Shown: positions 3,166-50,766 of the stretch, piece by piece
Position numbering within the stretch: position 1 is the stretch's first letter
Layout of the letters: each line of letters begins with the position of its first letter
Origin: an uncultured Chloroflexia bacterium
GTDB lineage: Bacteria; Chloroflexota; Limnocylindria; Limnocylindrales; CSP1-4
Direction: 5' to 3'
DNA: 64,000 nucleotides
Assembly: GCA_963716375.1 (NCBI GenBank)
Contig: OY970306.1
Span: forward strand, 1,378,676 to 1,442,675
The notes under the pieces: model-generated
What the model was told of the DNA's origin: nothing
Databases searched by the model: none
What the model saw: the letters and a program-made list of their open reading frames with translations, nothing else
Program-made: the position numbers and the translations under genes

Positions 3166-3172
3166 GGCGGCG

Positions 3173-5612: not shown

Positions 5613-5747
5613 CGAGCGGCCGCGCTGGAGACCTCGGGCTGATGGCGTCGGGGACCTCCGCCTCAGACCTCGGTGGGCGAGTGGCTCCCGTTTGGTGAGG
5701 GCGCCTGCTCCAGAGCGACAACGCTGGAGGGACACGCAACAGAACAG

Positions 5748-24204: not shown

Positions 24205-24208
24205 GTCG

Positions 24209-25865: not shown

Positions 25866-27457
25866 GCCGGCCACGCCCGATCGTGCTCGTGATCCTCGAC
25901 GGCTTCGGCCTCGGCCGTGACCCGGCCAATGACGCGATTGCCGCCGCCGAGATGCCGAACTGGCGGGCCCTGTTGGCGCGCTGGCCGCACGCGATCCTCG
26001 AAGCGTCCGAGGGAGCCGTCGGGTTGCCGCCCGGCCAGATGGGCAACTCCGAGGTCGGCCACCTCAATCTCGGGGCCGGCCGGCCGGTGCTGCCGGACCT
26101 CCAGCGGATCGACACCTCGCTCCACGACGGCAGCTTCGGGACGCAGCCAGCCCTTCTCGAGGCGATGGAGCGGGCAGCGCCCGCGGGCCGCCGCCTCCAC
26201 CTGATCAGCCTGATCGGCCCGGGCGGGGTGCACGCCAACGACCGTCACCTCGTGGCCCTGGCCGCCGTGGCTGCCCGCCATGGCGTGGCCGGCATCCGGG
26301 TCCATGCGCTGCTCGACGGCCGCGATACGCCGCCCCGCTCCGCCGTTGCGTTCATTCCGGACCTGGAGTCCCGCCTGCGGGAGGCGCACCCGGACGCCCG
26401 GATCGCGACGGTCGGCGGCCGCTACTACGGCATGGACCGCGACAAGCGCTGGGAGCGGACGGCCCTCGGGTACGACGCGATCGTGCATGGCGTGGGGGAG
26501 CACGCGCCGTCGGCCGCGGCGGCCGTGGCACTGGCCTACGCCCGGGGCGAGAACGACGAGTTCGTCCGGCCGACCGTGGTCGATGGGGTCGACGGCCGGA
26601 TTCGCGATGGCGACACCGTCCTGGTCTGCAACTTCCGTGCCGACCGGGCCCGTCAGCTCACGCATGCGCTGGCCGACCCCGTCTTTGACGGCTTCGATCG
26701 TGCCGCGGCCGGTCCCCAGCCGCGCGACCTCCTGGTCGTGACGCTGACGCAGTACGAATCCGGCCTGCCCGTGCGCGTCGCGTTTCCCCCGGAAGAGGCG
26801 CATTCCCTGGCCGAGGCGCTGAGCGGCGCCGGCTGGCGGCAGCTGCATGTGGCCGAGACCGAGAAGTACGCGCACGTGACGTACTTCTTCAATGGCGGCC
26901 GGGAGGCGGCCTGGCCGGGCGAGGAGCGGGCGCTCGTGCCGAGTCAGAAGGTCGCCACCTACGACCTGGCGCCCGAGATGAGCGCCACCGGCGTCACCGA
27001 CCGGCTCGTCGAGGCGATCGATTCGGACGCCTACGACTTCATCGTCGCGAACTATGCCAATGCCGACATGGTCGGCCACACCGGCGTCTGGGAGGCCACG
27101 ATCCGCGGCCTGGTCGCGCTCGATGCGTGCCTCGGCCGGGTGGCCGCGAGCGTGGCGGCCGTGGCCGGGCGCCATCCGTCCGAGGGCGGTGGCCTGCTGA
27201 TCGTCACTGCCGACCACGGCAATGCCGACGAGATGCGCAACGTCACCGGTGCGCCCGTGACGGCTCACTCGCTGAACCCGGTTCCGATCGTCCTCGCTGG
27301 CCGGGCCGTGGCGGGTCGAACGCTCCACGACGGCGTCCTGGCGGACGTCGCGCCGACGATCCTGGAGCTCGCCGGGCTGCCGGCCTGGCCCGACGTGACC
27401 GGCGCCAGCCTGCTCGACCGGCCTGGGGACGACCGGGCCGCCGACGGCCCGCGCTAG
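25862..27457 (+). CDS. gpmI: 2,3-bisphosphoglycerate-independent phosphoglycerate mutase
   Basis: Motifs ILDGFG, GNSEVGHLNLGAG and TADHGNAD. GTG 25862 overlaps the tpiA stop (GTGA). Confidence 0.9.
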   Translation: MSRPRPIVLVILDGFGLGRDPANDAIAAAEMPNWRALLARWPHAILEASEGAVGLPPGQMGNSEVGHLNLGAGRPVLPDLQRIDTSLHDGSFGTQPALLEAMERAAPAGRRLHLISLIGPGGVHANDRHLVALAAVAARHGVAGIRVHALLDGRDTPPRSAVAFIPDLESRLREAHPDARIATVGGRYYGMDRDKRWERTALGYDAIVHGVGEHAPSAAAAVALAYARGENDEFVRPTVVDGVDGRIRDGDTVLVCNFRADRARQLTHALADPVFDGFDRAAAGPQPRDLLVVTLTQYESGLPVRVAFPPEEAHSLAEALSGAGWRQLHVAETEKYAHVTYFFNGGREAAWPGEERALVPSQKVATYDLAPEMSATGVTDRLVEAIDSDAYDFIVANYANADMVGHTGVWEATIRGLVALDACLGRVAASVAAVAGRHPSEGGGLLIVTADHGNADEMRNVTGAPVTAHSLNPVPIVLAGRAVAGRTLHDGVLADVAPTILELAGLPAWPDVTGASLLDRPGDDRAADGPR

Positions 27458-29761: not shown

Positions 29762-29848
29762 GCCGAGGTGGCGGAATCGGTAGACGCGCTAGCTTCAGGA
29801 GCTAGTGTCCGCAAGGGCGTATGGGTTCAAATCCCTTCCTCGGTACCA
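29762..29848 (+). tRNA. tRNA-Leu (anticodon CAG), CCA encoded
   Basis: Manual cloverleaf: acceptor GCCGAGG/CCTCGGT, anticodon stem CTAGC/GCTAG with loop TTCAGGA, long variable arm, T-loop GGTTCAAATCC. Confidence 0.9.
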
Positions 29849-29885
29849 CCTTCCCTCGACCAGCGGACCCGGCGCCTTGTCTCCT

Positions 29886-29970
29886 GCCCAGGTGGCGGAA
29901 TTGGTATACGCGTACGTTTGAGGGGCGTATGACGCAAGTCATCCGGGTTCAAGTCCCGGCCTGGGCACCA
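29886..29970 (+). tRNA. tRNA-Leu (anticodon GAG), CCA encoded
   Basis: Acceptor GCCCAGG/CCTGGGC, anticodon loop TTGAGGG, long variable arm, T-loop GGTTCAAGTCC. Confidence 0.85.
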
Positions 29971-29989
29971 CTCTCCCTCGATTGATCGA

Positions 29990-30023
29990 CGACCCGCTGG
30001 CACTCACCGCCGGCGGGTCGTTT
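29990..30023 (+). terminator. rho-independent terminator candidate after the tRNA-Leu pair
   Basis: 12-bp stem CGACCCGCTGGC / GCCGGCGGGTCG with loop ACTCACC, followed by TTTCGATTC. Confidence 0.6.
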
Positions 30024-30108
30024 CGATTCGGGCGCCGGCGAAGTGGCCGAGTCTTCCGCCGCGAGGATCCGACGAGGCCGGCGGTCTCGTCGTTGCGTCG
30101 CGGTCGGG

Positions 30109-30114
30109 TAGCAT
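30109..30114 (+). promoter_or_regulatory. -10 element TAGCAT, 10 nt before tRNA-Val
   Basis: gggTAGCATcgcgcggtacGGGCGG. Confidence 0.4.
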
Positions 30115-30124
30115 CGCGCGGTAC

Positions 30125-30201
<77 letters not shown>

Positions 30202-30344: not shown

Positions 30345-30908
30345 GTGTCTCCGGTCGTCATCATCGTCATCGTGGCCGTAGTCGTGATCCTGATCGTCGG
30401 GGTCCTGATCTACAACGGCCTCGTCCAGCGCCGGCTGCGCATCGACGAAGCCTTTGCCCAGATCGACGTTCAGTTGAAGCGCCGCCACGATCTGATTCCG
30501 AATCTCGTGAACGCGGTCAAGGACTACATGGGATTCGAGCAGGAGGTCCTGACGCAGGTCACGCAGGCGCGCGCCAACGCGATCGCCGCGGGAGCCCAGG
30601 GACCGGCGGCCCAGGCCACCGCGGAGAACGCCCTGACCGGAGCCTTGCGCTCCGTCTTCGCCGTCGTCGAGAACTATCCCGATCTCAAGGCCAGCACCAA
30701 CGTCCTGGCGCTCCAGGAGCAGCTGACCACGACGGAAAACCAGATCAGCTTCGCGCGGCAGCACTACAACGCCACCGTGCTCGATTACAACCAGTCGATC
30801 CAGACGTTCCCGAGCGTCCTGATCGCCGGCCCGCTCGGATTCACGCGTCGCGAGTTCTTCGCCGCCGAGCCTGAAGCCAGCCAGGTGCCGGTCGTCTCAC
30901 TCCGCTAG
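30345..30908 (+). CDS. lemA: LemA family membrane protein
   Basis: One N-terminal TM (VVIIVIVAVVVILIVGVLIY) followed by LemA-type sequence (NGLVQRRLRIDEAFAQIDVQLKRRHDLIPNLV, ENYPDLKA). GGAGGG RBS before GTG 30345. Confidence 0.85.
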   Translation: MSPVVIIVIVAVVVILIVGVLIYNGLVQRRLRIDEAFAQIDVQLKRRHDLIPNLVNAVKDYMGFEQEVLTQVTQARANAIAAGAQGPAAQATAENALTGALRSVFAVVENYPDLKASTNVLALQEQLTTTENQISFARQHYNATVLDYNQSIQTFPSVLIAGPLGFTRREFFAAEPEASQVPVVSLR

Positions 30909-30962
30909 TCGAGGCGGCAGGCCAGGCTTCACGGCAGCGCCGGCCACCGCCCGAGGATCTCC

Positions 30963-31943
30963 GTGGCGAGTACCTTCTACAGCCAGATCGCGGCGAACCG
31001 CCGCAACTCCTTTCTGCTCGCGCTGTCCGTCGTGGGCCTGCTGGCCGCACTCGGCCTGACGATCGGATACGGCCTGACGGGCACGACTGCGGGCGGCCTC
31101 ATCGCGCTGGCAGCGGCGACCACGCTGGGCGTGCTCCTGTCGCTCGGCTCGTACTTCGGCGGCGACAAGCTCGTCCTGACCGTGTCCGATGCGAAGGAGA
31201 TCACGCAGGAACAGGCGCCCCAGCTGTTCAACGTCGTCCAGGAGCTGACGATCGCCGCGGGCATCCCGATGCCCAAGGTCTACATCATCGACGACACGGC
31301 GCCCAACGCCTTCGCCACGGGCCGCGACCCCGACCACGCATCGATCGCGATCACGTCCGGCCTGCTCCAGAAGCTCAACCGCGAGGAGCTGCAGGGCGTC
31401 ATCGGCCATGAGCTGTCCCATGTCCGCAACTACGACATCCGCTTCTCGCTGATCGTGGGCGTGCTGGTCGGCAGCATCGCCCTGCTCGCCGACTTCTTCC
31501 TGCGATTCACGTTCTGGGGCAGCGTCGGGGGCCGTCGATCGAACAACGATCGCGAGGGTGGGGGAGGCCTCCAGGCCGTCGTCATGGTCATCGCACTCGT
31601 GCTGGCGGTGATCGCCCCGATCATCGCCCGGTTCGTCCAGCTTGCCGTCAGCCGCCAGCGCGAATACCTCGCCGACGCGTCCTCGGTCGAACTGACGCGC
31701 AACCCCCACGGCATCGAAAGCGCGCTGGCCAAGATCTCGGAGGACAAGGAGGTCCTCGAGGTCGCCAACCGCGCGACCCAGCACCTGTACTTCACGAACC
31801 CGATCAAGAAGTTCGAGGCGCGCTCGAGCAACCTGATGTCGACGCACCCGCCGATCCTCGACCGGATCAACCGGCTGCGGCAGCTGACCGGCGAGCAGCC
31901 GCTGACACCGGCCGATGCGGCGCCCCTGACCGGTCTCGACTGA
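30963..31943 (+). CDS. htpX: M48-family zinc metalloprotease HtpX
   Basis: HELSHVRNYD (HExxH), TM segments flanking the catalytic domain, C-terminal STHPPILDRI. Paired with lemA, a common arrangement. Confidence 0.9.
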   Translation: MASTFYSQIAANRRNSFLLALSVVGLLAALGLTIGYGLTGTTAGGLIALAAATTLGVLLSLGSYFGGDKLVLTVSDAKEITQEQAPQLFNVVQELTIAAGIPMPKVYIIDDTAPNAFATGRDPDHASIAITSGLLQKLNREELQGVIGHELSHVRNYDIRFSLIVGVLVGSIALLADFFLRFTFWGSVGGRRSNNDREGGGGLQAVVMVIALVLAVIAPIIARFVQLAVSRQREYLADASSVELTRNPHGIESALAKISEDKEVLEVANRATQHLYFTNPIKKFEARSSNLMSTHPPILDRINRLRQLTGEQPLTPADAAPLTGLD

Positions 31944-32103: not shown

Positions 32104-32179
32104 GCCGAGATAGCTCAGTTGGTAGAGCACGCGACTGAAAATCGCGGTGTCGCCAGTTCGATTCTGGCTCTCGGCACCA
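32104..32179 (+). tRNA. tRNA-Phe (anticodon GAA), CCA encoded
   Basis: Acceptor GCCGAGA/TCTCGGC, anticodon stem CGCGA/TCGCG with loop CTGAAAA. Confidence 0.9.
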
Positions 32180-32198
32180 CCATACTGGTGGTCTTCGA

Positions 32199-32274
32199 GC
32201 GGAAGTGGCTCAGTTGGTAGAGCATCACCTTGCCAAGGTGAGGGTCGCGGGTTCGAGTCCCGTCTTCCGCTCCA
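32199..32274 (+). tRNA. tRNA-Gly (anticodon GCC), CCA encoded
   Basis: Acceptor GCGGAAG/CTTCCGC, anticodon stem TCACC/GGTGA with loop TTGCCAA. Confidence 0.9.
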
Positions 32275-32347
32275 ATTCCTTTCCTGATCTGCGGCTGACT
32301 AGACTGGTCGGGTCGGGCCGCCGCCGTCTGTGATGACTGCGGGCCGG

Positions 32348-32421
32348 TGCCCCTTCGTCCAGTGGTAGGACAGCGGACTTTGGATCCGTTAACCGAGGTT
32401 CGAATCCTCGAGGGGCAGCCA
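32348..32421 (+). tRNA. tRNA-Gln (anticodon TTG), CCA encoded
   Basis: Acceptor TGCCCCT/AGGGGCA (U1-A72), anticodon loop CTTTGGA, T-arm CGAGGTTCGAATCCTCG. Confidence 0.85.
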
Positions 32422-32456
32422 ACTCGCGCGGGAGAGCACCAGCTCGGACATCTCAG

Positions 32457-32532
32457 GGCGACGTACCCAAGTGGTTAAGGGGGAGGTCTGCAAAACCTCT
32501 ATGCATGGGTTCGAATCCCATCGTCGCCTCCA
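32457..32532 (+). tRNA. tRNA-Cys (anticodon GCA), CCA encoded
   Basis: Acceptor GGCGACG/CGTCGCC, anticodon stem GAGGT/ACCTC with loop CTGCAAA. Confidence 0.9.
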
Positions 32533-32613
32533 CTCCTTGAGCTGAGGCCCACGCGATGGCAGCTGGCAAACCGCGTGTCCACGCGGCGTTGACCGCGCTA
32601 GGCTGATGGCCGG

Positions 32614-32700
32614 GCCGGAGTGGCGGAACAGGCATACGCGGCGGACTTAAACTCCGCTGCCCGCAAGGGCATCAGGGTTCGAACCCCTGCTCCGGCACCA
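32614..32700 (+). tRNA. tRNA-Leu (anticodon TAA), CCA encoded
   Basis: Acceptor GCCGGAG/CTCCGGC, anticodon stem GCGGA/TCCGC with loop CTTAAAC, long variable arm. Confidence 0.9.
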
Positions 32701-32712: not shown

Positions 32713-32740
32713 AAGATGGGCTCGCGTGCGAGCCCATCTT
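32713..32740 (+). terminator. hairpin directly after the five-tRNA cluster (terminator candidate)
   Basis: Perfect 12-bp stem AAGATGGGCTCG / CGAGCCCATCTT with loop CGTG. No U-tract follows. Confidence 0.4.
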
Positions 32741-32933: not shown

Positions 32934-33202
32934 GGAGCGGCCATCGATTGTCTGGTGGCGGTCGCTTGCTGAGTTGCACCATATTGGAATTGGTCCACGG
33001 CTCGGTCACCGGATCGGAGCCTGGGCGGCAATCAGTAGTAGACGCCATCTCCTGGAGCCCTGTGGCTCCAGTTCGCCGAACGATCCCAACGTTCGGCCCG
33101 CCCTCGCCCATGGGTCAAGGGGCATCCCGCACCCAACCTCTCAGAACCGGTCGTTTCTGGTCAGTCGTCGTCCCGGCACCGCGTACATAGGGGGTCGTCA
33201 TC

Positions 33203-34945
33203 GTGATCGTGCACAGTCGTCGCAAACTCCTGATCCTGGTCGCCACCGTGGCGATGCTCGCATCGGCGTTCACCTTCCCGGTCGCCGTCAGCGCGGCTGG
33301 GATCTCGGCGATCAACTATGCCCTTGACGGGCAGAAGGCCGGGCAGACGATTACCGGTCCGAGCACCATCACGACGTTCGCGCCGGCCAACGTCTTCACC
33401 ACCGCCGACACGATCACGTTGACGTTCCCCGCCGGAACGACCTTTGCCAGCGGTCTGACCGAGAGTTCTTTCTCCTGTCAGCAGGGAGCCGGCGCCCAAA
33501 ACTCGTTCCTGGCCGCCTCGCTCAGCGTTTCCGGTTCCGGGGGCGCGACCCCGAAGATCGCGTTCAGGTGTCAGGCCGCATCCATCGGGGCCGCAACAAC
33601 GACTGTCACGATCGCCACGAGCGTCTCGGGCGCGGGCGCGATCACGAATCCGACGACGGCAGGCAACGCATACACATTCGGCGTTTCGATCACGAACGGT
33701 AACAACGAGGTCAAGGCCGGAATCGTCGTCACCCCCGCGGCGATCAGCCCCACCGCCTCGACCTTCACGGCTTCACCCGTGGTCCTCGCGGCCAATGGCG
33801 TAGCGGTCAGCACGCTCACGGCGACGCTGAAGGACCAGTACGGCAACATCATCACCGGCAAGAACGTCGGGATCGTCCAGTCCGGCGGGACCGTGTCCAG
33901 CGTCCCAGCCTCGTCGGGCGGACCGGTCAACGGCAGCGGCGTCTTCCAGACGACGAACACCGCGTCCGGCGTGACCGGGACGGCGACCTACACGGCCACA
34001 GACACGACGGACGCCGTGCAGCTCAGCGCGACGCCTACCGTGACGTTCCAGGCCAGTCCATCGACGGTTGCCTGCGGACCTGCGGGCGGCAGCACCGCTG
34101 GAACGGCCCTCTCCATCGCGGCCGGCTCGCTCGTGAACTGCCAGTTGTCGACGGGCACGCAGTACGTCGCCGCGTCACTGGTCTGGACCGCCACGGGCTT
34201 CAGCCCCTCGGGCTCCGCGAACCTGAACCAGACATTCACTGCCGGTAACACGGCCGGGACGTACTCCATCGCCGCGACGTGGACGGACGATGGCGTCGCC
34301 ACCAGCGCGACCTTCTACTACACGATCACCAACACGGCTTCGACCGTGACCTGCAGCCTGCCCGATGGCTCGACCATCGCGGCTGGCTCGACGGTGAGCT
34401 GCACATTTACACCTGGTGGCGGCTACACGGCCGGAACCCTCAGTTGGACCGCGGGCAGCTTCACGCCCACCAACGTTGCGCCCACCAACGTCAACCCGAC
34501 GTTCACGGCCGGCAGCACGGCCGGTGCCGCCAACATCACGGCAAACTGGCAGGACAACGGCACGCCGATGTCCACAGACGTTCAACTACACGATCAGCAC
34601 GAACGCCGCGTCGATCTCGTGCAACCCGCCGAGCGGCAGCACGATTGCCGCGGGCAGCGCGGTGAACTGCGTGTTCACACAGGGTTCGGGCGGCTCGAGC
34701 GGCTTCGCCTGGTCGGGCAGCAACTTCACTCCGGCCAGCGCCGACGCCTTCACCCAGACGTTTACCGCCGCCAACGTCAGCGCGGCAGGCAGCATCGGCG
34801 CCAGCTGGAGCGACAGCTCCGGCAACCACACGGCGAACTTCAGCTACACGATCACGAACACGGGCTCGACCGTGACCTGCAGCCCACCCACGGGCTCGAC
34901 GATCGCGTCCGGCTCTCCGGTGAACTGCACGTTCACGACCGGTAG
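33203..34945 (+). CDS. giant repeat protein, ORF-track fragment 1 (signal peptide to repeat 2; meaningful to ~34573 only)
   Basis: The in-frame sequence ends at ...NITANWQDNGTPMS. The remaining translation is Arg/His/Gln-rich out-of-frame text. Confidence 0.6.
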   Translation: MIVHSRRKLLILVATVAMLASAFTFPVAVSAAGISAINYALDGQKAGQTITGPSTITTFAPANVFTTADTITLTFPAGTTFASGLTESSFSCQQGAGAQNSFLAASLSVSGSGGATPKIAFRCQAASIGAATTTVTIATSVSGAGAITNPTTAGNAYTFGVSITNGNNEVKAGIVVTPAAISPTASTFTASPVVLAANGVAVSTLTATLKDQYGNIITGKNVGIVQSGGTVSSVPASSGGPVNGSGVFQTTNTASGVTGTATYTATDTTDAVQLSATPTVTFQASPSTVACGPAGGSTAGTALSIAAGSLVNCQLSTGTQYVAASLVWTATGFSPSGSANLNQTFTAGNTAGTYSIAATWTDDGVATSATFYYTITNTASTVTCSLPDGSTIAAGSTVSCTFTPGGGYTAGTLSWTAGSFTPTNVAPTNVNPTFTAGSTAGAANITANWQDNGTPMSTDVQLHDQHERRVDLVQPAERQHDCRGQRGELRVHTGFGRLERLRLVGQQLHSGQRRRLHPDVYRRQRQRGRQHRRQLERQLRQPHGELQLHDHEHGLDRDLQPTHGLDDRVRLSGELHVHDR

Positions 34946-37900
34946 CGCCTACACGGGCGGCAGCCTCGGCTGGACCGCGAGCGGCCTCACGCCGACCGTC
35001 GTCGGCGTCAACGCCAACCCGACCTTCACGGCGGGCAGCACCGCCGGCGCGGCCAATGTCACGGCGAACTGGCAGGACAACGGCGTTCCGAAGTCCCAGA
35101 CGTTCAACTACACGATCACGACCAACGCGTCGAGCGTCACGTGCAGCCCGCCTGGCGGCACGATCGGTCCGGCCACGCCCGTGAACTGCACATTCACGAT
35201 CGGCAGCGCCTACAACGCCGGTACGCTGAGCTGGATCGGCCGGGAGCTTCACCCCGACATCGGTCGGCCCGGTCGTCGCCCCGACCTTCACGGCGGGCAG
35301 CACCGCCGGCGCCGCCAACATCACGGCCAATTGGCAGGATGGCGGCGTCGCCAAGTCCCAGACGTTCAACTACACGATCAATACCAACGCCTCGACCGTG
35401 ACCTGCAGCCCGTCGAGCGGCAATCTTTCGCCGGCCGCGGTCGTGACCTGCACGTTCACGATCGGCAGCGCCTACAACGGCGGTTCACTCAGCTGGAACA
35501 CGAGCGGCTTCACCGCGAACTCGGCCGGTGCCGTTGCTGTCGACGACGTGGACCGCGGGTTCGACGGCCGGTCCGGCCAACGTGACCGTCAACTGGCAGG
35601 ACAACGGCGTCGCGAAGACGCAGACGTTCAACTACACGATCAGCACCACCGCCTCGGGCGTGACCTGCAGTCCGGCGAGCGGGACGATTTCGTCCGGCTC
35701 GCTCGTGAACTGCCACTTCACGACCGGTAGCGCTTACACCGGTGGTTCGCTCAACTGGACCGCCGGTGGGCTGACCCCGGCTTCGGTGCCGGGCAACAGC
35801 AATCCGGTCTTCACGGCCGGCAGCACGGCCGGTCCCGGCAACATCACCGCCAACTGGCAGGACAACGGCGTCGCGCAGTCGCAGACGTTCAACTACACGA
35901 TCAGCACCACGGCCTCGTCCGTGACCTGCAGCCCGCCGACGGGCTCGACGATCGCGGCCGGCGCCCAGGTGAACTGCACGTTCACGCTCGGCACGGCCTA
36001 TAACGGCAGCTCCCTCAGCTGGACCGCCAGCGGCCTCGCTCCCGCGACCGTCGGCGTGAATACCAACCCGACCTTTACCGCCGGCAACACGGCCGGCCCC
36101 GGCAACGTCACAGCCAATTGGCAGGATGGCGGGGTCGCGAAGTCGCAGACGTTCAACTACACGATCAGCACCACGGCCTCGAGCGTGAACTGCAACCCGG
36201 GCGGCGGCACCGTTGCCGACGGCCAGGTTGTCAACTGCTCGTTCGCCCCGGCACGGGGTATGTCGGCGTCGCTGGCCTGGACCTCGAGCCAGTTCAGCCC
36301 GGCCACCAGCGCCGCGGCCTTCCCGGCCTTCACGGCCGGCAATACGTCGGGTCCGGCGAGCATCACCGCCACGTGGACTGACGGCACCGGCAACCACTCC
36401 CAGACCTTCAGCTACACGATCAGCACGACCGCGTCGACGATCGTCTGCAATCCGCCGAACGGCGCCTCCCTGACGGCCGGCGACCAGGTCAACTGCACGT
36501 TCATCGCCGGCGCCGGATATGGCGCGAACCTGGCCTGGACGGCCACGAACTTCACGCCGACCAGCAGCGGCAGCGGGACCCCGGTCTTCACGGCCGGCAA
36601 CGTCAACGCGACCGGCACGATCGGCGCCACCTGGACCGACGGCGCCGGATCCCACTCCGCGCTGTTCAGCTACACCATCACGAAGCTTTCCTCTGCGGTC
36701 ACCTGCAACCCGCCCAACGGCACGATCGCCGTCGGCTCGGTCGTGAACTGCTCGTTCACCCCGGGCACGGGCTACGGCGGCAACATCAGCTGGACCTCGA
36801 CGGGCTTCAGCCCCTCGGGTCCCGTGACGACCGTCTCCGCGCCGTTCACGGCCGGTGGCACGGCCGGGGCGGCCCAGATCAACGCGACCTGGAGCGACAG
36901 CGCCGGGAACCACTCGGTCAGCTTCAACTACACGATCAGCGCCAGCCTCTCCTCGGTCACCTGCAGTCCGCCCTCGGGCACGATCGCAGCCGGCCAGGTG
37001 GTGCCCTGCGCCTTCACCGCCGGTGATTCCGCGGCCGGCCTTGCCTGGTCCGTGCCGGGCTTCGTCGCCGGGCCGAGCGGTTTCAACCCGTCCTTCACGG
37101 CCGGCAGCACGGCCGGTCCGGCCAGCATCACCGCCTCCTGGACCGACGGTGGCACGAACCACTCCCAGACCTTCAGCTACACGATCAGCACGACCGCCTC
37201 GGTCGTGAACTGCAACCCGGCCAACGGCACGATCGCCGTCAGCTCGGTCGTCAACTGCTCGTTCGTCCCCGGCACGGGCTACTCCGTCCCGGTCGCCTGG
37301 AGCTCGGTTGACTTCAACCCGGCGAGCTCGGTCTTCCAGAACCCGTCCTTCACCGCCCAGGGCACGGCCGGCGCGGCGAGCATCACCGCCACCTGGGCCG
37401 ACGCCTCCGGCGCTCACTCGGTGACCTTCGGCTACACCGTCAGCGCCAGCCTCTCCTCGGTCACCTGCAGTCCGCCCTCGGGCACGATCGCGGCGGGCCA
37501 GGTGGTCCCCTGCGCCTTCACCGCCGGCGATGCCTCGTCCGGCCCGACCTGGGCCGTGGCCGGCTTCCCGGCAGGACCGAGCGGCAACAACCCGTCCTTC
37601 ACGGCCGGCAACACCGCTGGCCCCGCGAGCATCACCGCCTCCTGGACCGACGGTGGCACGAACCACTCCCAGACCTTCAGCTACACGATCAGCACGACGG
37701 CCTCGCTGGCCAACTGCGTGCCGCCCAGTGGCAATGTCGCGACCGGCGCGGTCGTGAACTGCACGTTCACCCCGGGTACCGGCTACGGCGGCAACATCCC
37801 GTGGAGCCAGACGGGCTTCACCGGTCCAGCCACGACCGGGACCAATTCCCCGTCATTCACCGCTGGTTCGGTGGCCGGCCCGGCCGTGCTCACCGCCACC

Positions 37901-40900
37901 TGGAGTGACGCCGCCGGCGCGCATTCGCAGAGCTTCAACTACGTGATCAACACCTCGTCCTCTGCGGTCACCTGCAACCCGCCCAACGGCACGATCGCCG
38001 TCGGCTCGGTCGTGAACTGCTCGTTCACCCCGGGCACGGGCTACGGCGGCAACATCAGCTGGACCTCGACGGGCTTCAGCCCCTCGGGTCCCGTGACGAC
38101 CGTCTCCGCGCCGTTCACGGCCGGTGGCACGGCCGGGGCGGCCCAGATCAACGCGACCTGGAGCGACAGCGCCGGGAACCACTCGGTCAGCTTCAACTAC
38201 ACGATCAGCGCCAGCCTCTCCTCGGTCACCTGCAGTCCGCCCTCGGGCACGATCGCAGCCGGCCAGGTGGTGCCCTGCGCCTTCACCGCCGGTGATTCCG
38301 CGGCCGGCCTTGCCTGGTCCGTGCCGGGCTTCGTCGCCGGGCCGAGCGGTTTCAACCCGTCCTTCACGGCCGGCAGCACGGCCGGTCCGGCCAGCATCAC
38401 CGCCTCCTGGACCGACGGTGGCACGAACCACTCCCAGACCTTCAGCTACACGATCAGCACGACCGCCTCGGTCGTGAACTGCAACCCGGCCAACGGCACG
38501 ATCGCCGTCAGCTCGGTCGTCAACTGCTCGTTCGTCCCCGGCACGGGCTACTCCGTCCCGGTCGCCTGGAGCTCGGTTGACTTCAACCCGGCGAGCTCGG
38601 TCTTCCAGAACCCGTCCTTCACCGCCCAGGGCACGGCCGGCGCGGCGAGCATCACCGCCACCTGGGCCGACGCCTCCGGCGCTCACTCGGTGACCTTCGG
38701 CTACACCGTCAGCGCCAGCCTCTCCTCGGTCACCTGCAGTCCGCCCTCGGGCACGATCGCGGCGGGCCAGGTGGTCCCCTGCGCCTTCACCGCCGGCGAT
38801 GCCTCGTCCGGCCCGACCTGGGCCGTGGCCGGCTTCCCGGCAGGACCGAGCGGCAACAACCCGTCCTTCACGGCCGGCAACACCGCTGGCCCCGCGAGCA
38901 TCACGGCCTCCTGGACCGACGGTGGCACGAACCACTCCCAGACCTTCAGCTACACGATCAGCACGACGGCCTCGCTGGCCAACTGCGTGCCGCCCAGTGG
39001 CAACGTCGCGACCGGCGCGGTCGTGAACTGCACGTTCACCCCGGGTACCGGCTACGGCGGCAACATCCTGTGGAGCCAGACGGGCTTCACCGGGCCGGCC
39101 ACGACCACGACCAATTCCCCGTCATTCACCGCTGGTTCGGTGGCCGGCCCGGCCGTGCTCACCGCCACCTGGAGTGACGCCGCCGGCGCGCATTCGCAGA
39201 GCTTCAACTACGTGATCGTCGTGATCGGCTCCTCGGCGGACTGCAACCCGCCCAGCGGCACGATCGCGTCGAGCTCCGTCGTGAACTGCTCGTTCAGCCT
39301 CGGGCACCGACCTCACGGCCGGCCCGGCTGGACGGCAACCGGCTTCAGCTCACTCGGTGGCGGCAACTCGCCGAGCTTCCAGGCGGGCACCGCGGCCGGC
39401 CCGGCCACCATCTCGGTCACCTGGACCGACTCGACGGGCAGCCATTCCAAGGGCTTCAACTACGTGATCAGCATCACGGACTCCAGCGTCGCCTGCAGCC
39501 CGCCGTCGGGCAGCACGATCGGCGCCGGGACCACCGTCAACTGCACGTTCGCCCCCGGCACCGGGCTCAGCTCGGGCCCGACCTGGACCGCCAGCGGCTT
39601 CGCGGCCAATGGCGGCGGCAACAACCCGAGCTTCCTCGCCGGCAGCACGGCCGGTCCGGCCACGATCACCGCGTCGTGGAGTGACAGCAACGGCTCGCAC
39701 TCGCAGGGCTTCAACTACACGATCAGCACGACCGGCCTCGTCGGTCAGCTGCAACCCGTCCGGCGGCGTCGTCGTCGACGGCCAGGTCGTCAACTGCTCC
39801 TTCAGCGCCGGCCAGGGCTTCGTGACCCTGGCGTGGACCACGAGCCACTTCACCGGCCCGGGCGCGGCTTCGCGCCGGCGTTCAGCGCCAACACCGTCGC
39901 CGGTCCGGCCAGCATCACTGCCACCTGGACCGACGGCCAGGGCAACCACAGCCAGAGCTTCAACTACACGATCAGCACGACGGCCTCCACGGTCGTCTGC
40001 AACCCGGCCAGCTTCTCGACGATTGCTGCCAGCTCGACCGTCCAGTGCCAGTTCAACGCTGGCGCCGGATACAGTGGTGGCAGCCTGGCCTGGACCGCCA
40101 GCAACTTCACGCCGGTCAACAGCCCGATCAGCCCGGTGACCTTCACGGCCTCGGCCAGCGGGGGCACCGGCACCATCCAGGCCACCTGGACCGATGGCTC
40201 GGGCTTCCACAGCCAGACCTTCACCTACACGATCAGCACCACGGCCTCACTGGCGAGTTGCAACCCGGCCGGCGGCCCCGTCGCGACGAACCAGGTCGTC
40301 AACTGCTCCTTCAACGCGGGCTCGGGGTATGTCGCCCTCAGCCTGAACTGGTCCACCGCCGGGTTCGCGCCCGGTAGCAGCGCCAGCGTCGTGCCGTCCT
40401 TCACGGCCGGCACGATCGGCGGGCCGGCCAGCATCACGGCCACGTGGAATGACGGCTCCGGCGTCCATAGCCAGAGCTTCAACTACACGATCAGCACGAC
40501 GGTCTCGGCCGCAACCTGCAACCCGGGCAGCGGCACCATCCCGGCCAGTAGCGTCATCAACTGCTCGTTCACCGCATCGGTTGGCTACACCCCAGGCTCG
40601 CTCGTCTGGACGCTGTCGTCGGGCCTCAGCTTCGATCCGAACAGCACCTCCACGAGCATCGCTCCGGTGGTCCTCGCCGGCACGACGCTCGGTCCCGTCC
40701 ACATCACGGCCAACTGGTCCGACTCTTCGGGCAACCGCAGCCAGGGCTTCAACTACACGATCGGGACGACCCCGTCGCTCGTGAACTGCAGCCCGGCCAA
40801 TGGCAACATCGCCCCGGCGTCAATCGTGAACTGCCTGTTCACCCCGGGGTCCGGCTATGCCGGGAACCTCGGCTGGACCAGCAGCAACTTCACGCCGGCC

Positions 40901-41972
40901 ACGATCAACGCTCTTGAGTCCGGCGTTCACCGCCGGCACAACCGGAGGGGCGGCCACGATCACCGCATCGTGGAGTGACAGCAGTGGCCCGCACACCCAG
41001 GCGTTCAGCTACAACGTCTCGAGTTCATCGTCGAGCGTGTCCTGCACGCCGGTGAGCGGTACCTCGTTCGCACCTGGGTCGGTCGTCAACTGCCTCTTCA
41101 CAGCGGGTCCGGCGTTCGTCCTGGGGTCGCTCGTTTGGACGGCAAGCAACTTCACTCCGGCGAGCAGCACCGCCAACCCGGGCCAGGCCTTCACGGCCGG
41201 CGCGACCGGGGGAGCGGCGTCCATCACGGCCACCTGGAACGACGGGGCACCCCGGACCCAGACCTTCGTCTATACCATCACCTCCTCGGCGACGCTGGTC
41301 TGCAACCCCGTCGGCGGGGCGCTGAATGCCGGCCAGGCGGTCATCTGCGGCTTCACCGGAACCGCGGGCTCCACCTTCACCGGCTGGGCATCCACGGGCT
41401 TCACGCCGAATCTCAGCGCCGCGACCACCCAGGTCTTCGTCGCTGGGGCGCCGAGTCTGACGGCATCGATCACCGGCACCTGGACCGACAGCTCGGGCGG
41501 ACACTCCGCGGTCTTCCTGTACTCGATCGTCGGGGCGCCCGTTCCGCCAATCCCGCCGATCGGTGTCAAGACCTCGATCACGGCAAGCTCGGCCCTGGGC
41601 AAGACCAAGGACCCGACCAGGTTCACGGTCGGCACCAAGGTGGCGTCCATCGTTCCCGGCACCAACAATGTCGTGACAATTCGCTTCAAGATGTCGCCCT
41701 CGACAGCGGGCAAGATCATCCAGATCTACAAGGCCAGCCGGGCCTGCGTCTCGGGGACGCCTCCCGGCCAGGTCGTCTGCACCCCTGGCCATCACTACAA
41801 CGGCTGGTCGGGCTTCACGCTCTTCACGGCCCGTGCGGTCGATGCCGATGGGTTCGCCTACATGTACGTCTCGACCAAGACCGCCCAGTGGCTGTCGTTC
41901 TACGGGTCATTCCCGGGCGACACCGTCCAGGGTCCTGGCCGATCGCAGACCCAGCAGGTTCGCTGGAAGTAA
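33203..41972 (+). CDS. giant secreted tandem-repeat protein (~2,900 aa): signal peptide, N-terminal domain, Big_1-like Ig domain, 29 copies of an ~85-95-aa two-Cys repeat, and a distinct C-terminal domain. The frame is interrupted by at least 6 indels.
   Basis: GTG 33203 follows an AGGGGG RBS. The signal peptide is MIVHSRRKLLILVATVAMLASAFTFPVAVSA|AG. Repeat consensus: TFNYTISTTASSVTCSPPSGTIAAGQVVNCTFTPGTGYGGNLSWTASGFTPA..NPSFTAGSTAGPASITASWTDGGTNHSQ. Coding sense is followed across frames at ~34574, ~35235, ~35540, 39734/~39866 and ~40915, plus a possible pair at ~39299/~39329. A hairpin terminator follows the stop at 41970-41972. Confidence 0.85.
34416..35585 (+). CDS. giant repeat protein, ORF-track fragment 2 (repeats 3-5; meaningful ~34575-35234)
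   Basis: Repeat sequence QTFNYTISTNAASISCNPPSG ... AYNAGTLSW is in this frame. The flanks are out of frame. Confidence 0.6.
   Translation: MAATRPEPSVGPRAASRPPTLRPPTSTRRSRPAARPVPPTSRQTGRTTARRCPQTFNYTISTNAASISCNPPSGSTIAAGSAVNCVFTQGSGGSSGFAWSGSNFTPASADAFTQTFTAANVSAAGSIGASWSDSSGNHTANFSYTITNTGSTVTCSPPTGSTIASGSPVNCTFTTGSAYTGGSLGWTASGLTPTVVGVNANPTFTAGSTAGAANVTANWQDNGVPKSQTFNYTITTNASSVTCSPPGGTIGPATPVNCTFTIGSAYNAGTLSWIGRELHPDIGRPGRRPDLHGGQHRRRRQHHGQLAGWRRRQVPDVQLHDQYQRLDRDLQPVERQSFAGRGRDLHVHDRQRLQRRFTQLEHERLHRELGRCRCCRRRGPRVRRPVRPT
35398..35730 (+). CDS. giant repeat protein, ORF-track fragment 3 (repeat 6; meaningful ~35236-35540)
   Basis: TCSPSSGNLSPAAVVTCTFTIGSAYNGGSLSWNTSGFTANSAG is in this frame. 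Confidence 0.55.
   Translation: MTCSPSSGNLSPAAVVTCTFTIGSAYNGGSLSWNTSGFTANSAGAVAVDDVDRGFDGRSGQRDRQLAGQRRREDADVQLHDQHHRLGRDLQSGERDDFVRLARELPLHDR
35528..40978 (+). CDS. giant repeat protein, ORF-track fragment 4 (repeats 7-27, 1816 aa; contains one or two internally compensated frameshift pairs)
   Basis: This is the longest open stretch. The repeat consensus is readable throughout except 39734-39866, where the sense sequence ASSVSCNPSGGVVVDGQVVNCSFSAGQGFVTLAWTTSHFTGPG lies in another frame, and possibly 39299-39329. Confidence 0.75.
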   Translation: MPLLSTTWTAGSTAGPANVTVNWQDNGVAKTQTFNYTISTTASGVTCSPASGTISSGSLVNCHFTTGSAYTGGSLNWTAGGLTPASVPGNSNPVFTAGSTAGPGNITANWQDNGVAQSQTFNYTISTTASSVTCSPPTGSTIAAGAQVNCTFTLGTAYNGSSLSWTASGLAPATVGVNTNPTFTAGNTAGPGNVTANWQDGGVAKSQTFNYTISTTASSVNCNPGGGTVADGQVVNCSFAPARGMSASLAWTSSQFSPATSAAAFPAFTAGNTSGPASITATWTDGTGNHSQTFSYTISTTASTIVCNPPNGASLTAGDQVNCTFIAGAGYGANLAWTATNFTPTSSGSGTPVFTAGNVNATGTIGATWTDGAGSHSALFSYTITKLSSAVTCNPPNGTIAVGSVVNCSFTPGTGYGGNISWTSTGFSPSGPVTTVSAPFTAGGTAGAAQINATWSDSAGNHSVSFNYTISASLSSVTCSPPSGTIAAGQVVPCAFTAGDSAAGLAWSVPGFVAGPSGFNPSFTAGSTAGPASITASWTDGGTNHSQTFSYTISTTASVVNCNPANGTIAVSSVVNCSFVPGTGYSVPVAWSSVDFNPASSVFQNPSFTAQGTAGAASITATWADASGAHSVTFGYTVSASLSSVTCSPPSGTIAAGQVVPCAFTAGDASSGPTWAVAGFPAGPSGNNPSFTAGNTAGPASITASWTDGGTNHSQTFSYTISTTASLANCVPPSGNVATGAVVNCTFTPGTGYGGNIPWSQTGFTGPATTGTNSPSFTAGSVAGPAVLTATWSDAAGAHSQSFNYVINTSSSAVTCNPPNGTIAVGSVVNCSFTPGTGYGGNISWTSTGFSPSGPVTTVSAPFTAGGTAGAAQINATWSDSAGNHSVSFNYTISASLSSVTCSPPSGTIAAGQVVPCAFTAGDSAAGLAWSVPGFVAGPSGFNPSFTAGSTAGPASITASWTDGGTNHSQTFSYTISTTASVVNCNPANGTIAVSSVVNCSFVPGTGYSVPVAWSSVDFNPASSVFQNPSFTAQGTAGAASITATWADASGAHSVTFGYTVSASLSSVTCSPPSGTIAAGQVVPCAFTAGDASSGPTWAVAGFPAGPSGNNPSFTAGNTAGPASITASWTDGGTNHSQTFSYTISTTASLANCVPPSGNVATGAVVNCTFTPGTGYGGNILWSQTGFTGPATTTTNSPSFTAGSVAGPAVLTATWSDAAGAHSQSFNYVIVVIGSSADCNPPSGTIASSSVVNCSFSLGHRPHGRPGWTATGFSSLGGGNSPSFQAGTAAGPATISVTWTDSTGSHSKGFNYVISITDSSVACSPPSGSTIGAGTTVNCTFAPGTGLSSGPTWTASGFAANGGGNNPSFLAGSTAGPATITASWSDSNGSHSQGFNYTISTTGLVGQLQPVRRRRRRRPGRQLLLQRRPGLRDPGVDHEPLHRPGRGFAPAFSANTVAGPASITATWTDGQGNHSQSFNYTISTTASTVVCNPASFSTIAASSTVQCQFNAGAGYSGGSLAWTASNFTPVNSPISPVTFTASASGGTGTIQATWTDGSGFHSQTFTYTISTTASLASCNPAGGPVATNQVVNCSFNAGSGYVALSLNWSTAGFAPGSSASVVPSFTAGTIGGPASITATWNDGSGVHSQSFNYTISTTVSAATCNPGSGTIPASSVINCSFTASVGYTPGSLVWTLSSGLSFDPNSTSTSIAPVVLAGTTLGPVHITANWSDSSGNRSQGFNYTIGTTPSLVNCSPANGNIAPASIVNCLFTPGSGYAGNLGWTSSNFTPATINALESGVHRRHNRRGGHDHRIVE
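36689..39217 (+). repeat. near-perfect 1,269-bp tandem segmental duplication (five repeat units per copy) inside the array
   Basis: 36689-37948 aligns with 37958-39217 at a constant offset of 1,269. The first ~947 bp look identical by eye. I found 7 substitutions in the last ~310 bp, the first at 37636/38905. ORF-track pairs 36855/38124, 36928/38197 and 37432/38701 give identical peptides. Confidence 0.9.
40857..41972 (+). CDS. giant repeat protein, ORF-track fragment 5 (repeats 28-29 and a ~150-aa C-terminal domain; meaningful from ~40915)
   Basis: SPAFTAGTTGGAATITASWSDSSGPHTQAFSYNVS... continues to a non-repeat C-terminus (...CVSGTPPGQVVCTPGHHYNGWSGFTLF...QQVRWK). Confidence 0.7.
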   Translation: MPGTSAGPAATSRRPRSTLLSPAFTAGTTGGAATITASWSDSSGPHTQAFSYNVSSSSSSVSCTPVSGTSFAPGSVVNCLFTAGPAFVLGSLVWTASNFTPASSTANPGQAFTAGATGGAASITATWNDGAPRTQTFVYTITSSATLVCNPVGGALNAGQAVICGFTGTAGSTFTGWASTGFTPNLSAATTQVFVAGAPSLTASITGTWTDSSGGHSAVFLYSIVGAPVPPIPPIGVKTSITASSALGKTKDPTRFTVGTKVASIVPGTNNVVTIRFKMSPSTAGKIIQIYKASRACVSGTPPGQVVCTPGHHYNGWSGFTLFTARAVDADGFAYMYVSTKTAQWLSFYGSFPGDTVQGPGRSQTQQVRWK

Positions 41973-42176: not shown

Positions 42177-43409
42177 TCAGCGGTGGAGCAGACTGCCGAT
42201 GCCGCGTCGCCGCTCGCCGGCGGCCGCCTCGGCCGATCCGCCGAGGGCCATCGTGGCGAGAGTCGTCAAGCGATCCGCCGCATTCGACTTCGGTGCGCTC
42301 GTAACGACCGGGACGCCCTCGTTGATCGCCTTGACGTAGAGGAGGGGGTCGTAGACGAGCTCGAGCGACATCTTCGTGCCGACGGCGTTCTCGATGTCCG
42401 CGGTCTTCAGCAGCTCTCGGGAGAACAAGTTGTTCAGGATGAAGATCGTCTTGCTCACTGCCGACGTCGTCTCGTTCATGAAGTCGAGCAGCGTCGAGAT
42501 CGCCCTGAGGCAACCGAGTTCGGCGATGAGCGGCATGATCACGCAATCGGCCTGCTCGAACGCCATGAGGGTCCGCTCGTCGAGGTTCGAGCCCGCGTCG
42601 ATCACGATCACGTCGAAGGCCCCGCCTGCGGTCGCCAGCAGCCGATCGATGTGCCGCGCCGTGACGAGCTGGGCGAGCTCCGGCGAGCCTGGCGCCGTCA
42701 GCACCTCGAGGCCGCTGTCGTGGCTCGTGATGTACGTCCGCATCAGGTCGATGTCCCGGAGCGCCTCTTCGTCGCGGGTGAGGTCGGCCAGCGAGTGATG
42801 GATCGGGAGGTTGAGGTGTGTCGCGACCTGGCCAAACTGGAGGTCGAGGTCGACGAGCAAGGTCCTGGCCGGGTGCAGCTGCGTGGCGACTGCGGCGATG
42901 TTGACGGCGATCAGCGTGGTCCCCACGCCGCCTTTGGGACTGAAGCAGACGATGACCCGCTGGCCCCGGCTCTCAGCACCGTTCATGCCGGGGAGTGGCG
43001 TCAGGTCGAGGGATCGCTGGAAGCGCAGCAAGAGGGACTCTACGCGGGCCTCGAGCTCGCGGGCATCGAATGGCCGCGCCATCACGTCGTCGGCGCCCGC
43101 CTCGAGGAACCTGATCCGGTCCTCGACGTCGTCGGTCTGGCTGATGCAGAGGATCGGGACCGAGGCGAGGTTCGGCTGCGCCCGGAGCTCGCGGCAGATA
43201 TCCTGCGCCGACCGCCCGCCCGTGCTCACGTCGAGGATCACCAGGTGCTGCGCGGCGGCGCGGCTCGCCAGGGTCTCGGGATTCTGGATGGCGATGACCT
43301 TGTACCCGGCCTCGTTCAGGGTCGTCCGGACGATCTCGCCCGATGAAGGGTCCGTTTCGAGAAGAAGGATGCTGCCGCTCGGCACAGTCGCTCCGCTCAG
43401 GGCCGGCAT
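42177..43409 (-). CDS. response-regulator receiver domain fused to a ParA/MinD-type ATPase with a deviant Walker A (TadZ/CpaE-like)
   Basis: The receiver region is SILLLETD...HLVILDV...PILCISQ...ARPF. The ATPase region is VIVCFSPKGGVGTTLIAVNIA, DVIVIDAG. Start set to ATG 43409 (MPALSG...), because the 70 codons upstream in the ORF track are Arg/Pro-rich. Confidence 0.8.
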   Translation of the reverse strand: MPALSGATVPSGSILLLETDPSSGEIVRTTLNEAGYKVIAIQNPETLASRAAAQHLVILDVSTGGRSAQDICRELRAQPNLASVPILCISQTDDVEDRIRFLEAGADDVMARPFDARELEARVESLLLRFQRSLDLTPLPGMNGAESRGQRVIVCFSPKGGVGTTLIAVNIAAVATQLHPARTLLVDLDLQFGQVATHLNLPIHHSLADLTRDEEALRDIDLMRTYITSHDSGLEVLTAPGSPELAQLVTARHIDRLLATAGGAFDVIVIDAGSNLDERTLMAFEQADCVIMPLIAELGCLRAISTLLDFMNETTSAVSKTIFILNNLFSRELLKTADIENAVGTKMSLELVYDPLLYVKAINEGVPVVTSAPKSNAADRLTTLATMALGGSAEAAAGERRRGIGSLLHR

Positions 43410-43534
43410 TGCCGGGACATTCGGGGTCGCTTGAAGTTGAGGATACAACGCGCCGACGGCCCGGGGCCGCTGAACCGGGCATTCGACGGAATTTCGCGGC
43501 CGCCGGGCGTCCGACCGGCCTGGCCGACCGACCG

Positions 43535-43543
43535 TGCTAGACT
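43535..43543 (+). promoter_or_regulatory. extended -10 TGCTAGACT upstream of rpsF-ssb-rpsR
   Basis: ~95-nt leader before ATG 43640. Confidence 0.5.
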
Positions 43544-43639
43544 CTCGAGTCTGTCCTTTCGGCTCCGCGCGCGTCGTCGGTCTCCGCCAGAACCGGCCGC
43601 CAAGCGGGGCGATCCCCACAGGAAGGAGTACATAGGCGG

Positions 43640-44090: not shown

Positions 44091-44555
44091 ATGTCGCTGA
44101 ACAAGGCGATGATCATCGGCAACCTCGGCCGCGATCCGGAGATGCGGTACACCCCGAGCGGCCAGGCCGTGACGCAGTTCACGGTCGCCGTCAACCGCAA
44201 CTACAAGGATCACGACGGGGCCTGGCAGGAAGAAACCGAGTGGTTCCGCGTCGTCGCCTGGGGCCCGCTCGCGGAGCGGACGGCCGAGTACCTCCGCAAG
44301 GGCCGTAAGGTCTTCGTCGAGGGACGCCTCCAGACCCGCCAGTGGGAGGGCCAGGACGGCCAGAAGCGCTACACGACGGAGCTCGTGGCCAACACGGTGA
44401 CCCCCCTCGACCCGCGCCCGCGGGACGAAGGCGGCGAGCCGAGTGGCGCTCCCGGCGGCCCGCCTCGCCAGAGCGCGCCACGGTCATCCGGTGGCCCGTC
44501 CGACGGCCCGGCCGATCGGCTCGACGAGCCCGAACTCGACGACCTTCCCTTCTGA
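44091..44555 (+). CDS. ssb: single-stranded DNA-binding protein
   Basis: OB-fold N-terminus (NKAMIIGNLGRDPEMRYTPSG), Gly/Pro-rich linker and an acidic tip DDLPF. Confidence 0.95.
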   Translation: MSLNKAMIIGNLGRDPEMRYTPSGQAVTQFTVAVNRNYKDHDGAWQEETEWFRVVAWGPLAERTAEYLRKGRKVFVEGRLQTRQWEGQDGQKRYTTELVANTVTPLDPRPRDEGGEPSGAPGGPPRQSAPRSSGGPSDGPADRLDEPELDDLPF

Positions 44556-50689: not shown

Positions 50690-50695
50690 CGCGGG

Positions 50696-50701
50696 TAGGA
50701 T
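50696..50701 (+). promoter_or_regulatory. -10 element TAGGAT upstream of ileS
   Basis: gggTAGGATactcgg, ~65 nt before ATG 50767, in the divergent region shared with the LCP gene. Confidence 0.4.
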
Positions 50702-50766
50702 ACTCGGACGGTCCAACGCCCGCCAGCGAGACCGCCCAACCCCAATTCGTGCGCAGCCGAGGTCCG

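Follow-up and report, generated by a model that had tools for sequence, protein, structure and literature searches.

A split gene for a giant protein, probably an extracellular fibre of 29 disulfide-stapled Ig-like units, in an uncultured soil Chloroflexota bacterium

The giant gene described here lies in a 64,000-nucleotide stretch of an uncultured Chloroflexia bacterium (assembly GCA_963716375.1, contig OY970306.1, positions 1,378,676 to 1,442,675), hereafter called the window, whose own numbering is used throughout. The preliminary description of this DNA had taken the locus for a single gene of 8.8 kb: the start and the stop were placed correctly, whereas the reading frame is broken up into four overlapping plus-strand open reading frames (ORFs) in three frames—33203–34945, 34416–35585, 35528–40978, and 40857–41972 in the ORF list. 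The same repeat is visible in all four translations. Conceptual repair, which had been proposed as a check, requires eight single-base corrections, as judged by the three-frame translations and the DNA context, and yields a product of 2,921 amino acids (aa) with zero internal stops. Six corrections remove a surplus base and two restore a lacking one; four of these positions form two compensated pairs within the 1,816-aa ORF, leaving unit 21 of the array with 8 garbled codons and unit 23 with 43 (Table 1). In the public record, the two largest ORF fragments are entered as separate proteins on one contig. Because of the strong Thr/Ser/Ala/Gly codon bias of the gene, a plot of GC content at third codon positions (GC3) wrongly places it on the minus strand, and the long antisense ORFs (e.g., 35510–37666) were rejected as shadows. 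Scans for promoter and terminator consensus sequences at both gene ends gave nothing, a result that is uninformative for a Chloroflexota genome.

Table 1. Features of the giant gene, in window coordinates
Feature	Position	Strand	Basis or remark
GGGGG, Shine-Dalgarno-like	33190-33194	+	8 nt upstream of the GTG start; read from the sequence
GTG start codon	33203	+	beginning of the first ORF
Signal peptide, aa 1-31	33203-33295	+	predicted cleavage VSA/AG; judged by eye
N-terminal orphan domain, aa 32-181, one Cys pair	33296-33745	+	zero library matches
Invasin_D3/Big_1 Ig-like domain, aa 182-283	33746-34051	+	Pfam
29 tandem Ig-like units, 83-93 aa each	34052-41528	+	unit list; read across three frames
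Surplus A, +1 shift in unit 2	34574	+	three-frame reading; profile match split 34576/34599
Surplus T, +1 shift in unit 5	35236	+	three-frame reading, DNA context, profile
Surplus base, +1 shift in unit 6	35540-35555 (~35549, position uncertain)	+	profile match taken up again in the next frame from 35540
Tandemly duplicated 1,269-bp block of five units (units 11-15 = 16-20)	36665-39202	+	98.6% identical
Compensated pair, unit 21	surplus C 39305; base lacking after 39328	+	HRPHGRPG replaces TDLTAGPA
Compensated pair, unit 23	surplus G 39734; base lacking after 39868	+	43 codons out of frame
Surplus T of TT, +1 shift in unit 27	40915	+	profile match split 40909/40881
C-terminal beta-sandwich domain, 146 aa, own Cys pair, ends ...SQTQQVRWK	41532-41972, including stop	+	orthologue conservation
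Stop codon	41972	+	end of the fourth ORF

The bulk of the protein is a head-to-tail array of immunoglobulin-like (Ig-like) units. A profile built from the clean units and run against the six-frame translation of the whole window scores approximately 100 bits per unit from 34055 to 41528, breaks between frames at most of the inferred indels, and finds no copy outside the array. It maps 29 units, the number given before, joined by linkers of 3–5 residues, and Tandem Repeats Finder (TRF) returns periods of 249–262 bp. In an alignment of 20 distinct units, seven residues are invariant: C8, C24, W39, W72, D74, F83, and Y85. This agrees with the two Cys and two Trp per unit noted earlier, the Cys being separated by 14–15 residues in all units except unit 1, where the spacing is 21. 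The repaired protein contains 62 Cys, all of them assignable to pairs—58 in the units, two in the N-terminal domain, and two in the C-terminal domain. Its composition is extreme, with Thr, Ser, Ala, and Gly making up 55% and charged residues approximately 3% (Glu 0.1%, Lys and Arg 1.1%, Asp 1.9%). The two compensated indel pairs are apparent in the profile as well: unit 21 as written scores 80 bits compared with approximately 100 for the adjacent units, and unit 23 as written has lost both Cys, with profile positions 3–48 recovered in the adjacent frame at 39735–39869.

Within the array, a five-unit block of 1,269 bp occurs in two tandem copies with 18 mismatches and 0 indels, including an identical run of 950 bp (36689–37635). 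Since units 16–20 repeat units 11–15, the array contains only 24 distinct units, which are mutually 35–76% identical. A duplication of 98.6% identity, with 950 bp lacking a single mismatch, in an assembly in which errors are demonstrably present could mean that the array is in part an assembly artefact—with a true copy number other than 29 and a five-unit duplication that is spurious or stems from the collapse of more numerous copies. We regard this as very unlikely, as the other 24 units are too diverged to have been mis-assembled from each other, long reads easily span a 1.3-kb repeat, and the same diverged units, in unchanged order, make up long arrays in independent metagenome assemblies.

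The assembly may also account for the broken reading frame: the eight indels are probably for the most part long-read assembly errors and not gene decay. Three housekeeping genes are broken in the same manner. The gene uvrB (3173–5698) is split between frames at ~3661–3702, ileS (50452–54137) is split twice, at ~51850 and within 53424–53713, and priA (56463–58968) is split at ~57440. In these genes, the direction is +1 in each of the four cases, and the four net shifts of the giant gene all share it. Since a broken ileS would be incompatible with life, the housekeeping shifts point to a systematic insertion-type assembly error, which is the simplest account of the indels in the giant gene as well. 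Two observations weigh against this account. With 8 indels in 8.8 kb, the giant gene has approximately five times the indel density of the housekeeping genes checked (4 in ~21 kb), so that a minority of the indels could be genuine mutations; and none of the eight lies inside the near-identical 2.5-kb block, where polishing would be expected to be hardest.

If the frameshifts were genuine, the locus would be the decaying pseudogene of a giant surface protein, from which no more than an N-terminal fragment of 580 aa is produced: four of the shifts are uncompensated, the first of them ends the product at 34945, the indel density is raised, and inactivation is common among genes for large surface proteins. 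This reading appears distinctly improbable. The like +1 shifts in the essential genes ileS, uvrB, and priA cannot be true decay; indels aside, the units retain every invariant residue, and the repaired frame has zero in-frame stops. Bacterial pseudogene decay typically shows a deletion bias, whereas 10 of the 12 inferred indels are single-base gains (six of eight in the giant gene and four of four in the housekeeping genes), and orthologues of the gene are intact and under purifying selection. Two further ORFs of the window, whiA (23717–25063) and secF (15103–16374), cover only the C-terminal two-thirds of their NCBIfam profiles (positions 118–303 of 304 and 92–279 of 279, respectively), which may reflect further frameshifts or mis-set starts.

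The Ig-like or β-sandwich nature proposed for the units is borne out by modeling. AlphaFold2 (AF2), given the other units as alignment, predicts an all-β sandwich with a mean predicted local distance difference test score (pLDDT) of 96. In a Foldseek search of the Protein Data Bank (PDB) with this model, no structure scores below E = 1e-3. Two PKD domains lead at E of approximately 1e-3, that of an archaeal S-layer protein (1l0q) as the top match and that of 2y72, with template modeling (TM) scores of 0.63–0.65 at 15–24% identity; they are closely followed by fn3-like, ICAM, and other Ig-like modules, with SbsB also listed. In the AF2 model, Cys8 lies on strand 5–9 and Cys24 on strand 21–27, namely strands A and B, and the two are paired in register. 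Together with the invariance of both residues, this makes a cross-strand disulfide plausible, and each unit is probably stapled by a Cys8–Cys24 bridge. Both Cys are also conserved in the 103 unit domains found outside the window.

On the level of sequence, the unit is an Ig-like module nearest to PKD in shape, yet a family of its own. The preliminary description had assigned the repeat to no named family and had set E < 1e-5 as the level at which a match would change this; such a match is reached in neither Pfam nor NCBIfam. In Pfam, the unit is reported for CFAP65 Ig fragments (E = 0.004) and for aBig_2 (E = 0.075; 13.3 bits against a cut-off of 27), far under the cut-offs, with Big_2 itself absent from the report. 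PKD (PF00801 and PF18911) gives no Pfam match at E <= 1 with single units or with a four-unit block, and He_PIG, HYR, and HYR_4C give no Pfam match to the unit. In NCBIfam, no family comes up at E <= 1, be it with the N-terminal region, one unit, the C-terminal domain, or a block of 14 units (1,192 aa). Among PDB sequences, the best match to the unit reaches only E = 0.14 (a Big_2-like segment of 7quz). Profile–profile comparison of the unit by hhalign gives probabilities of 9% for He_PIG, 2% for HYR_4C, 46% for PKD_4 over 42 in-register columns, and 72% for HYR, the last being out of register (query 3–33 on template 41–72). These values are no higher than those that the He_PIG, HYR, and PKD families score against one another. 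The comparison alignments were built from single proteins, which limits the sensitivity of these values; versions made by jackhmmer were contaminated by array units and were discarded.

The unit could alternatively be a divergent member of one of the named Ig-like families—PKD, Big_2, He_PIG, or HYR—in which case there would be no new family. The resemblance to PKD domains is indeed the closest in structure, the aBig_2, 7quz, and PKD_4 matches are faint echoes in sequence, and HYR, He_PIG, and PKD proteins rank among the last matches to the unit profile. We nevertheless consider this membership rather unlikely. No Pfam model comes near its gathering score, and where the families co-occur in one protein, Pfam calls the PKD or TIG domain, never the adjacent unit. 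The unit profile scores 8–20 bits per domain on HYR, He_PIG, and PKD proteins compared with 36–118 for true members, and hhalign, with its low He_PIG and out-of-register HYR probabilities, separates the unit from these families no less than they are separated from one another. The motifs differ too. With PKD (1l0q; ColG, 2y72), the unit shares an Ig-like β-sandwich of ~85 aa and the tandem occurrence that is frequent for PKD in extracellular proteins. However, the unit has an invariant C-x14-15-C, two Trp, and a final strand H-S-Q-x-F-x-Y-T-I, and its consensus reads W-[TS]-x-x-G-F-x-P where PKD has WDFGDG, the loop motif that is the conserved signature of PKD. With Big_2 and aBig_2, the unit shares by eye the motif order V-x-P...G...V...W...G-x-A-x-I-T-A...D-G, but its matches to these (E = 0.075 and 0.14 only) are far under the gathering threshold, and Big_2 is not known to have a conserved Cys pair.

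The repeat belongs to a rare family but is not private to the giant gene. An exhaustive HMMER scan of 1.84 billion protein representatives, the metagenomic search proposed in the preliminary description, yields 131 proteins with E <= 1e-3. Some of these are HYR, He_PIG, and PKD proteins of repetitive make-up, which pass this whole-protein cut by summing weak domains of 8–20 bits. Membership was assigned per domain: at least 35 bits over at least 66 of the 85 positions of the unit profile, and the pattern C...C, W, G-F-x-P, F-T-A, I-T-A-x-W-x-D, H-S-x-x-F-x-Y-T-I. By this measure, 103 full-length unit domains occur in 74 proteins outside the window, with single domains scoring 36–118 bits. A word-indexed homologue search with the same profile found one 145-aa soil-metagenome fragment only and thus understates the size of the family. 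Elsewhere, the unit occurs once or twice per protein: beside Kelch, RCC1, PD40, or SBBP propellers; beside M23 and C39-like peptidases; and beside Calx-beta, PKD, TIG, and VWA domains. These neighboring domains are called by Pfam, whereas the unit is not. The members that were looked up all lack a name or are annotated as hypothetical, one of them from the metagenome-assembled genome (MAG) of a member of Dehalococcoidia, and long arrays are confined to the orthologue group of the giant gene. The 727-aa protein P0009, encoded on a 209-kb Logan contig, is low in GC and archaeal-looking and carries one PKD domain and four units, which suggests that the family crosses the divide between bacteria and archaea. 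Its tail, read by eye as PEF followed by a hydrophobic and a basic stretch, resembles an archaeosortase signal.

The N-terminus features the regions of a signal peptide. The segment MIVHSRRKLLILVATVAMLASAFTFPVAVSA/AG has a basic n-region (RRK), a hydrophobic core, and an AVSA c-region, i.e., the layout of a Sec-type signal, in keeping by eye with the cleavage after VSA proposed earlier. It is the sole clearly hydrophobic stretch of the protein; the other Kyte–Doolittle peak above 1.6 is marginal and lies inside a unit. The domain of approximately 150 aa that follows, and the Big_1-like segment behind it, are also found as described. The former is an orphan, unmatched in Pfam, NCBIfam, and PDB sequences; a homologue search with the N-terminal region gives matches only in the Big_1 part. 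The latter, at aa 182–284, matches Invasin_D3 (PF09134) at E = 7.1e-10 with 39.7 bits, above the cut-off of 33, and Big_1 (PF02369) at E = 2.9e-6 with 27.7 bits, under the cut-off of 34.9. Nothing else is reported by Pfam for aa 1–378.

The C-terminal domain is, as stated before, separate from the units and provided with its own Cys pair. The AF2 model is an all-β, nine-strand sandwich with a pLDDT of 70.6. Pfam, NCBIfam, and PDB sequences offer no counterpart to the domain; Foldseek gives nothing specific (TM <= 0.42), and a profile search of genome contigs finds no relative. About seven sequences with this domain are known. It is 61–67% identical in the orthologues P0005 and P0006, and it also ends three proteins that differ upstream (P0140–P0142); a CAP/SCP-like start of P0141, an impression by eye, is not confirmed by Pfam at E <= 1e-5. 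As the domain is portable and strictly C-terminal, it is a candidate attachment or sorting module, which we infer from this pattern of occurrence only. The known alternatives are missing: neither an LP.[TSA][GAN] motif nor a C-terminal hydrophobic segment is found in the repaired protein, in line with the lack of an LPXTG signal and of a C-terminal transmembrane anchor noted before.

The giant gene is a member of a small, lineage-restricted orthologue group under purifying selection. Three metagenome contigs carry collinear orthologues. P0005, encoded by an uninterrupted ORF on a metagenome contig of 4.4 kb, is 1,227 aa long and comprises 13 units followed by the C-terminal domain; its units are collinear one by one with units 16–29 of the giant protein; the array is therefore old and conserved. 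P0006, the protein encoded on contig L003, and the orthologue on contig L002 likewise have unbroken ORFs and end in the same domain. The ratio of nonsynonymous to synonymous substitution rates (dN/dS) is 0.31 against L002 and 0.57 against L003. The genes 3′ of the array are shared in part. In the window, the giant gene is directly followed by a minus-strand gene (42177–43619) for a response-regulator receiver fused to a ParA/MinD-type ATPase (REC–ParA; AAA_31, a CpaE-like architecture) and then by ssb (44091–44555). On L003, the gene end is followed by a gene resembling those of the major facilitator superfamily (MFS), a REC and ParA/MinD-like gene on the opposite strand (3806–5035), and rpsF; on L002, it is followed by a nitroreductase-like gene and then by the same REC–ParA gene (3054–3590, minus strand). 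Since the gene end has the same position in L002 and L003, the giant gene is a stable resident of the lineage, and its earlier portrayal as the only clearly accessory gene was overstated.

A genomic island was considered for the same locus, as hinted at by a tRNA cluster upstream and a dip in GC content to 0.64; that the gene end keeps its position in relatives speaks against an island, and the flanking ORFs that were checked include no recognized integrase. The tRNA genes upstream form two clusters: Leu-CAG, Leu-GAG, and Val-TAC at 29762–30201; and Phe, Gly, Gln, Cys, and Leu-TAA at 32104–32700, approximately 500 bp upstream of the giant gene. Between them, at 30345–31943, lie a LemA-family gene and, after it, htpX, a zinc metalloprotease gene, and the last tRNA is followed by a perfect hairpin, AGATGGGCTCGC...GCGAGCCCATCT, at ~32714–32740. 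Among 185,579 species genomes, the nearest relatives of gpmI (25862–27457) are found in Chloroflexota MAGs (L004–L008) at 76, 74, 71, 70, and 65% identity; the values of 70–76% belong to MAGs labeled "uncultured Chloroflexia" or "Anaerolineaceae", compared with ~50% for everything else. These identities place the window in Chloroflexota. Three of the five gpmI loci are "MFD" bins on large contigs.

The known systems close to the giant protein include the fibrillar adhesin-like proteins in the sense of Monzon and Bateman (2021), e.g., SasG, Cna, and intimin (PMC8286594). In these as in the giant protein, a single chain forms a long rod of Ig-like stalk domains in tandem and bears distinct domains at its ends. 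The stalk is given by the 29 tandem units with their short linkers, an extracellular location is suggested by the signal-peptide-like N-terminus and the even number of conserved Cys, and at each end there is a distinct domain, neither of which matches a known adhesive family. In contrast to the fibrillar adhesins, it has no known anchor—LPXTG, SLH, LysM, a transmembrane segment, or CHU_C—and its stalk lies outside the Pfam families used for recognition. The survey found nearly half of its predicted members to be without a known anchor and does not mention Chloroflexota (PMC8286594). With invasin and intimin, the giant protein shares a genuine Invasin_D3/Big_1 domain, a long Ig-like rod, and a compact C-terminal domain; it differs by the lack of LysM, by an orphan N-terminal domain of 150 aa, and by a rod made of another domain. 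An inverse autotransporter was rejected, since the Pfam scan of aa 1–378 shows no IAT_beta barrel. Chloroflexota are generally regarded as having no outer membrane, a further difference from inverse autotransporters.

Two more comparisons concern parts of the protein. Periscope proteins vary the length of surface proteins via near-identical DNA repeats (PMC9704523), and the 98.6% tandem duplication in the stalk resembles such repeats, with unit content varying between orthologues; unlike in Periscope proteins, most units are old, diverged, and in one-to-one correspondence between orthologues. The C-terminal domain may be compared by analogy with the C-terminal domain of type IX secretion substrates (T9SS CTD) and with SLH, being a small β-sandwich at the extreme end of proteins whose upstream parts are unrelated, but it has no sequence match and no specific fold match to either.

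Taken together, the locus probably, though not beyond reasonable doubt, holds one gene for a Sec-exported extracellular fibre of ~2,900 residues. A fibrillar surface protein is the most likely function: a familiar type of protein assembled from uncatalogued parts. The protein is laid out as a predicted signal peptide, an orphan head of 150 aa, an invasin-type Ig domain, 29 units, each probably stapled by a disulfide between strands A and B, and a compact C-terminal β-sandwich. At ~4 nm per Ig-like domain, the array would form a stalk of ~120 nm, projecting one terminal domain from the cell, and the giant protein would act like a surface fibril or fibrillar adhesin. With its near-identical copies, the five-unit block would offer recombination a substrate for lengthening or shortening the stalk. 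Since the C-terminal domain ends other proteins too, it would be the better candidate end for wall binding or sorting. Some further findings count against this picture: SRRKLL in the signal peptide can also be read as a weak twin-arginine motif, and the terminal regions contain no adhesive domain, SLH, LPXTG, transmembrane segment, or other Pfam anchor.

The missing adhesive domain, which is not recognizable in Pfam, NCBIfam, or PDB sequences, would also fit a structural component of the envelope—an S-layer, a sheath, or a matrix fibre—with the array as building material in place of a presenting stalk. Many Chloroflexota are filamentous and some are sheathed, the composition of the protein is extreme, and an archaeal S-layer PKD domain is the top structural match, with SbsB in the same list. 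This role is judged unlikely in view of three features: the protein lacks SLH and any other domain for S-layer anchoring; one monomer of 29 beads is a fibril-type architecture; and outside the lineage, the unit occurs singly or in pairs as an accessory module of enzymes and propellers.

Giant surface proteins of tandem Ig-like domains are common, and hence the kind itself is not new. Here, however, the stalk domain, the head, and the tail all go unrecognized by Pfam 2025, NCBIfam 2026, and PDB sequences, and the protein comes from a lineage of uncultured soil Chloroflexota in which the cell surface has hardly been studied. In the public record, probable +1 indel errors split the giant gene and several essential genes, and pseudogene calls in this assembly are not to be trusted. 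A defined unit family would provide annotation labels for 74 further proteins and an additional stalk domain for programs that find fibrillar adhesins, and the portable C-terminal domain is a candidate for an as yet unknown anchoring mechanism. A broader reading, which we put forward tentatively and hold to be possible but doubtful, is that an undescribed disulfide-stapled Ig-like family is used by environmental Chloroflexota, some archaea, and other uncultured lineages, and that the C-terminal domain with its SQTQQVRW[KR] end is a new attachment or sorting module in a lineage lacking sortase-type signals. If this holds, the locus would offer a first point of entry into the display of giant proteins by soil Chloroflexota of this lineage.

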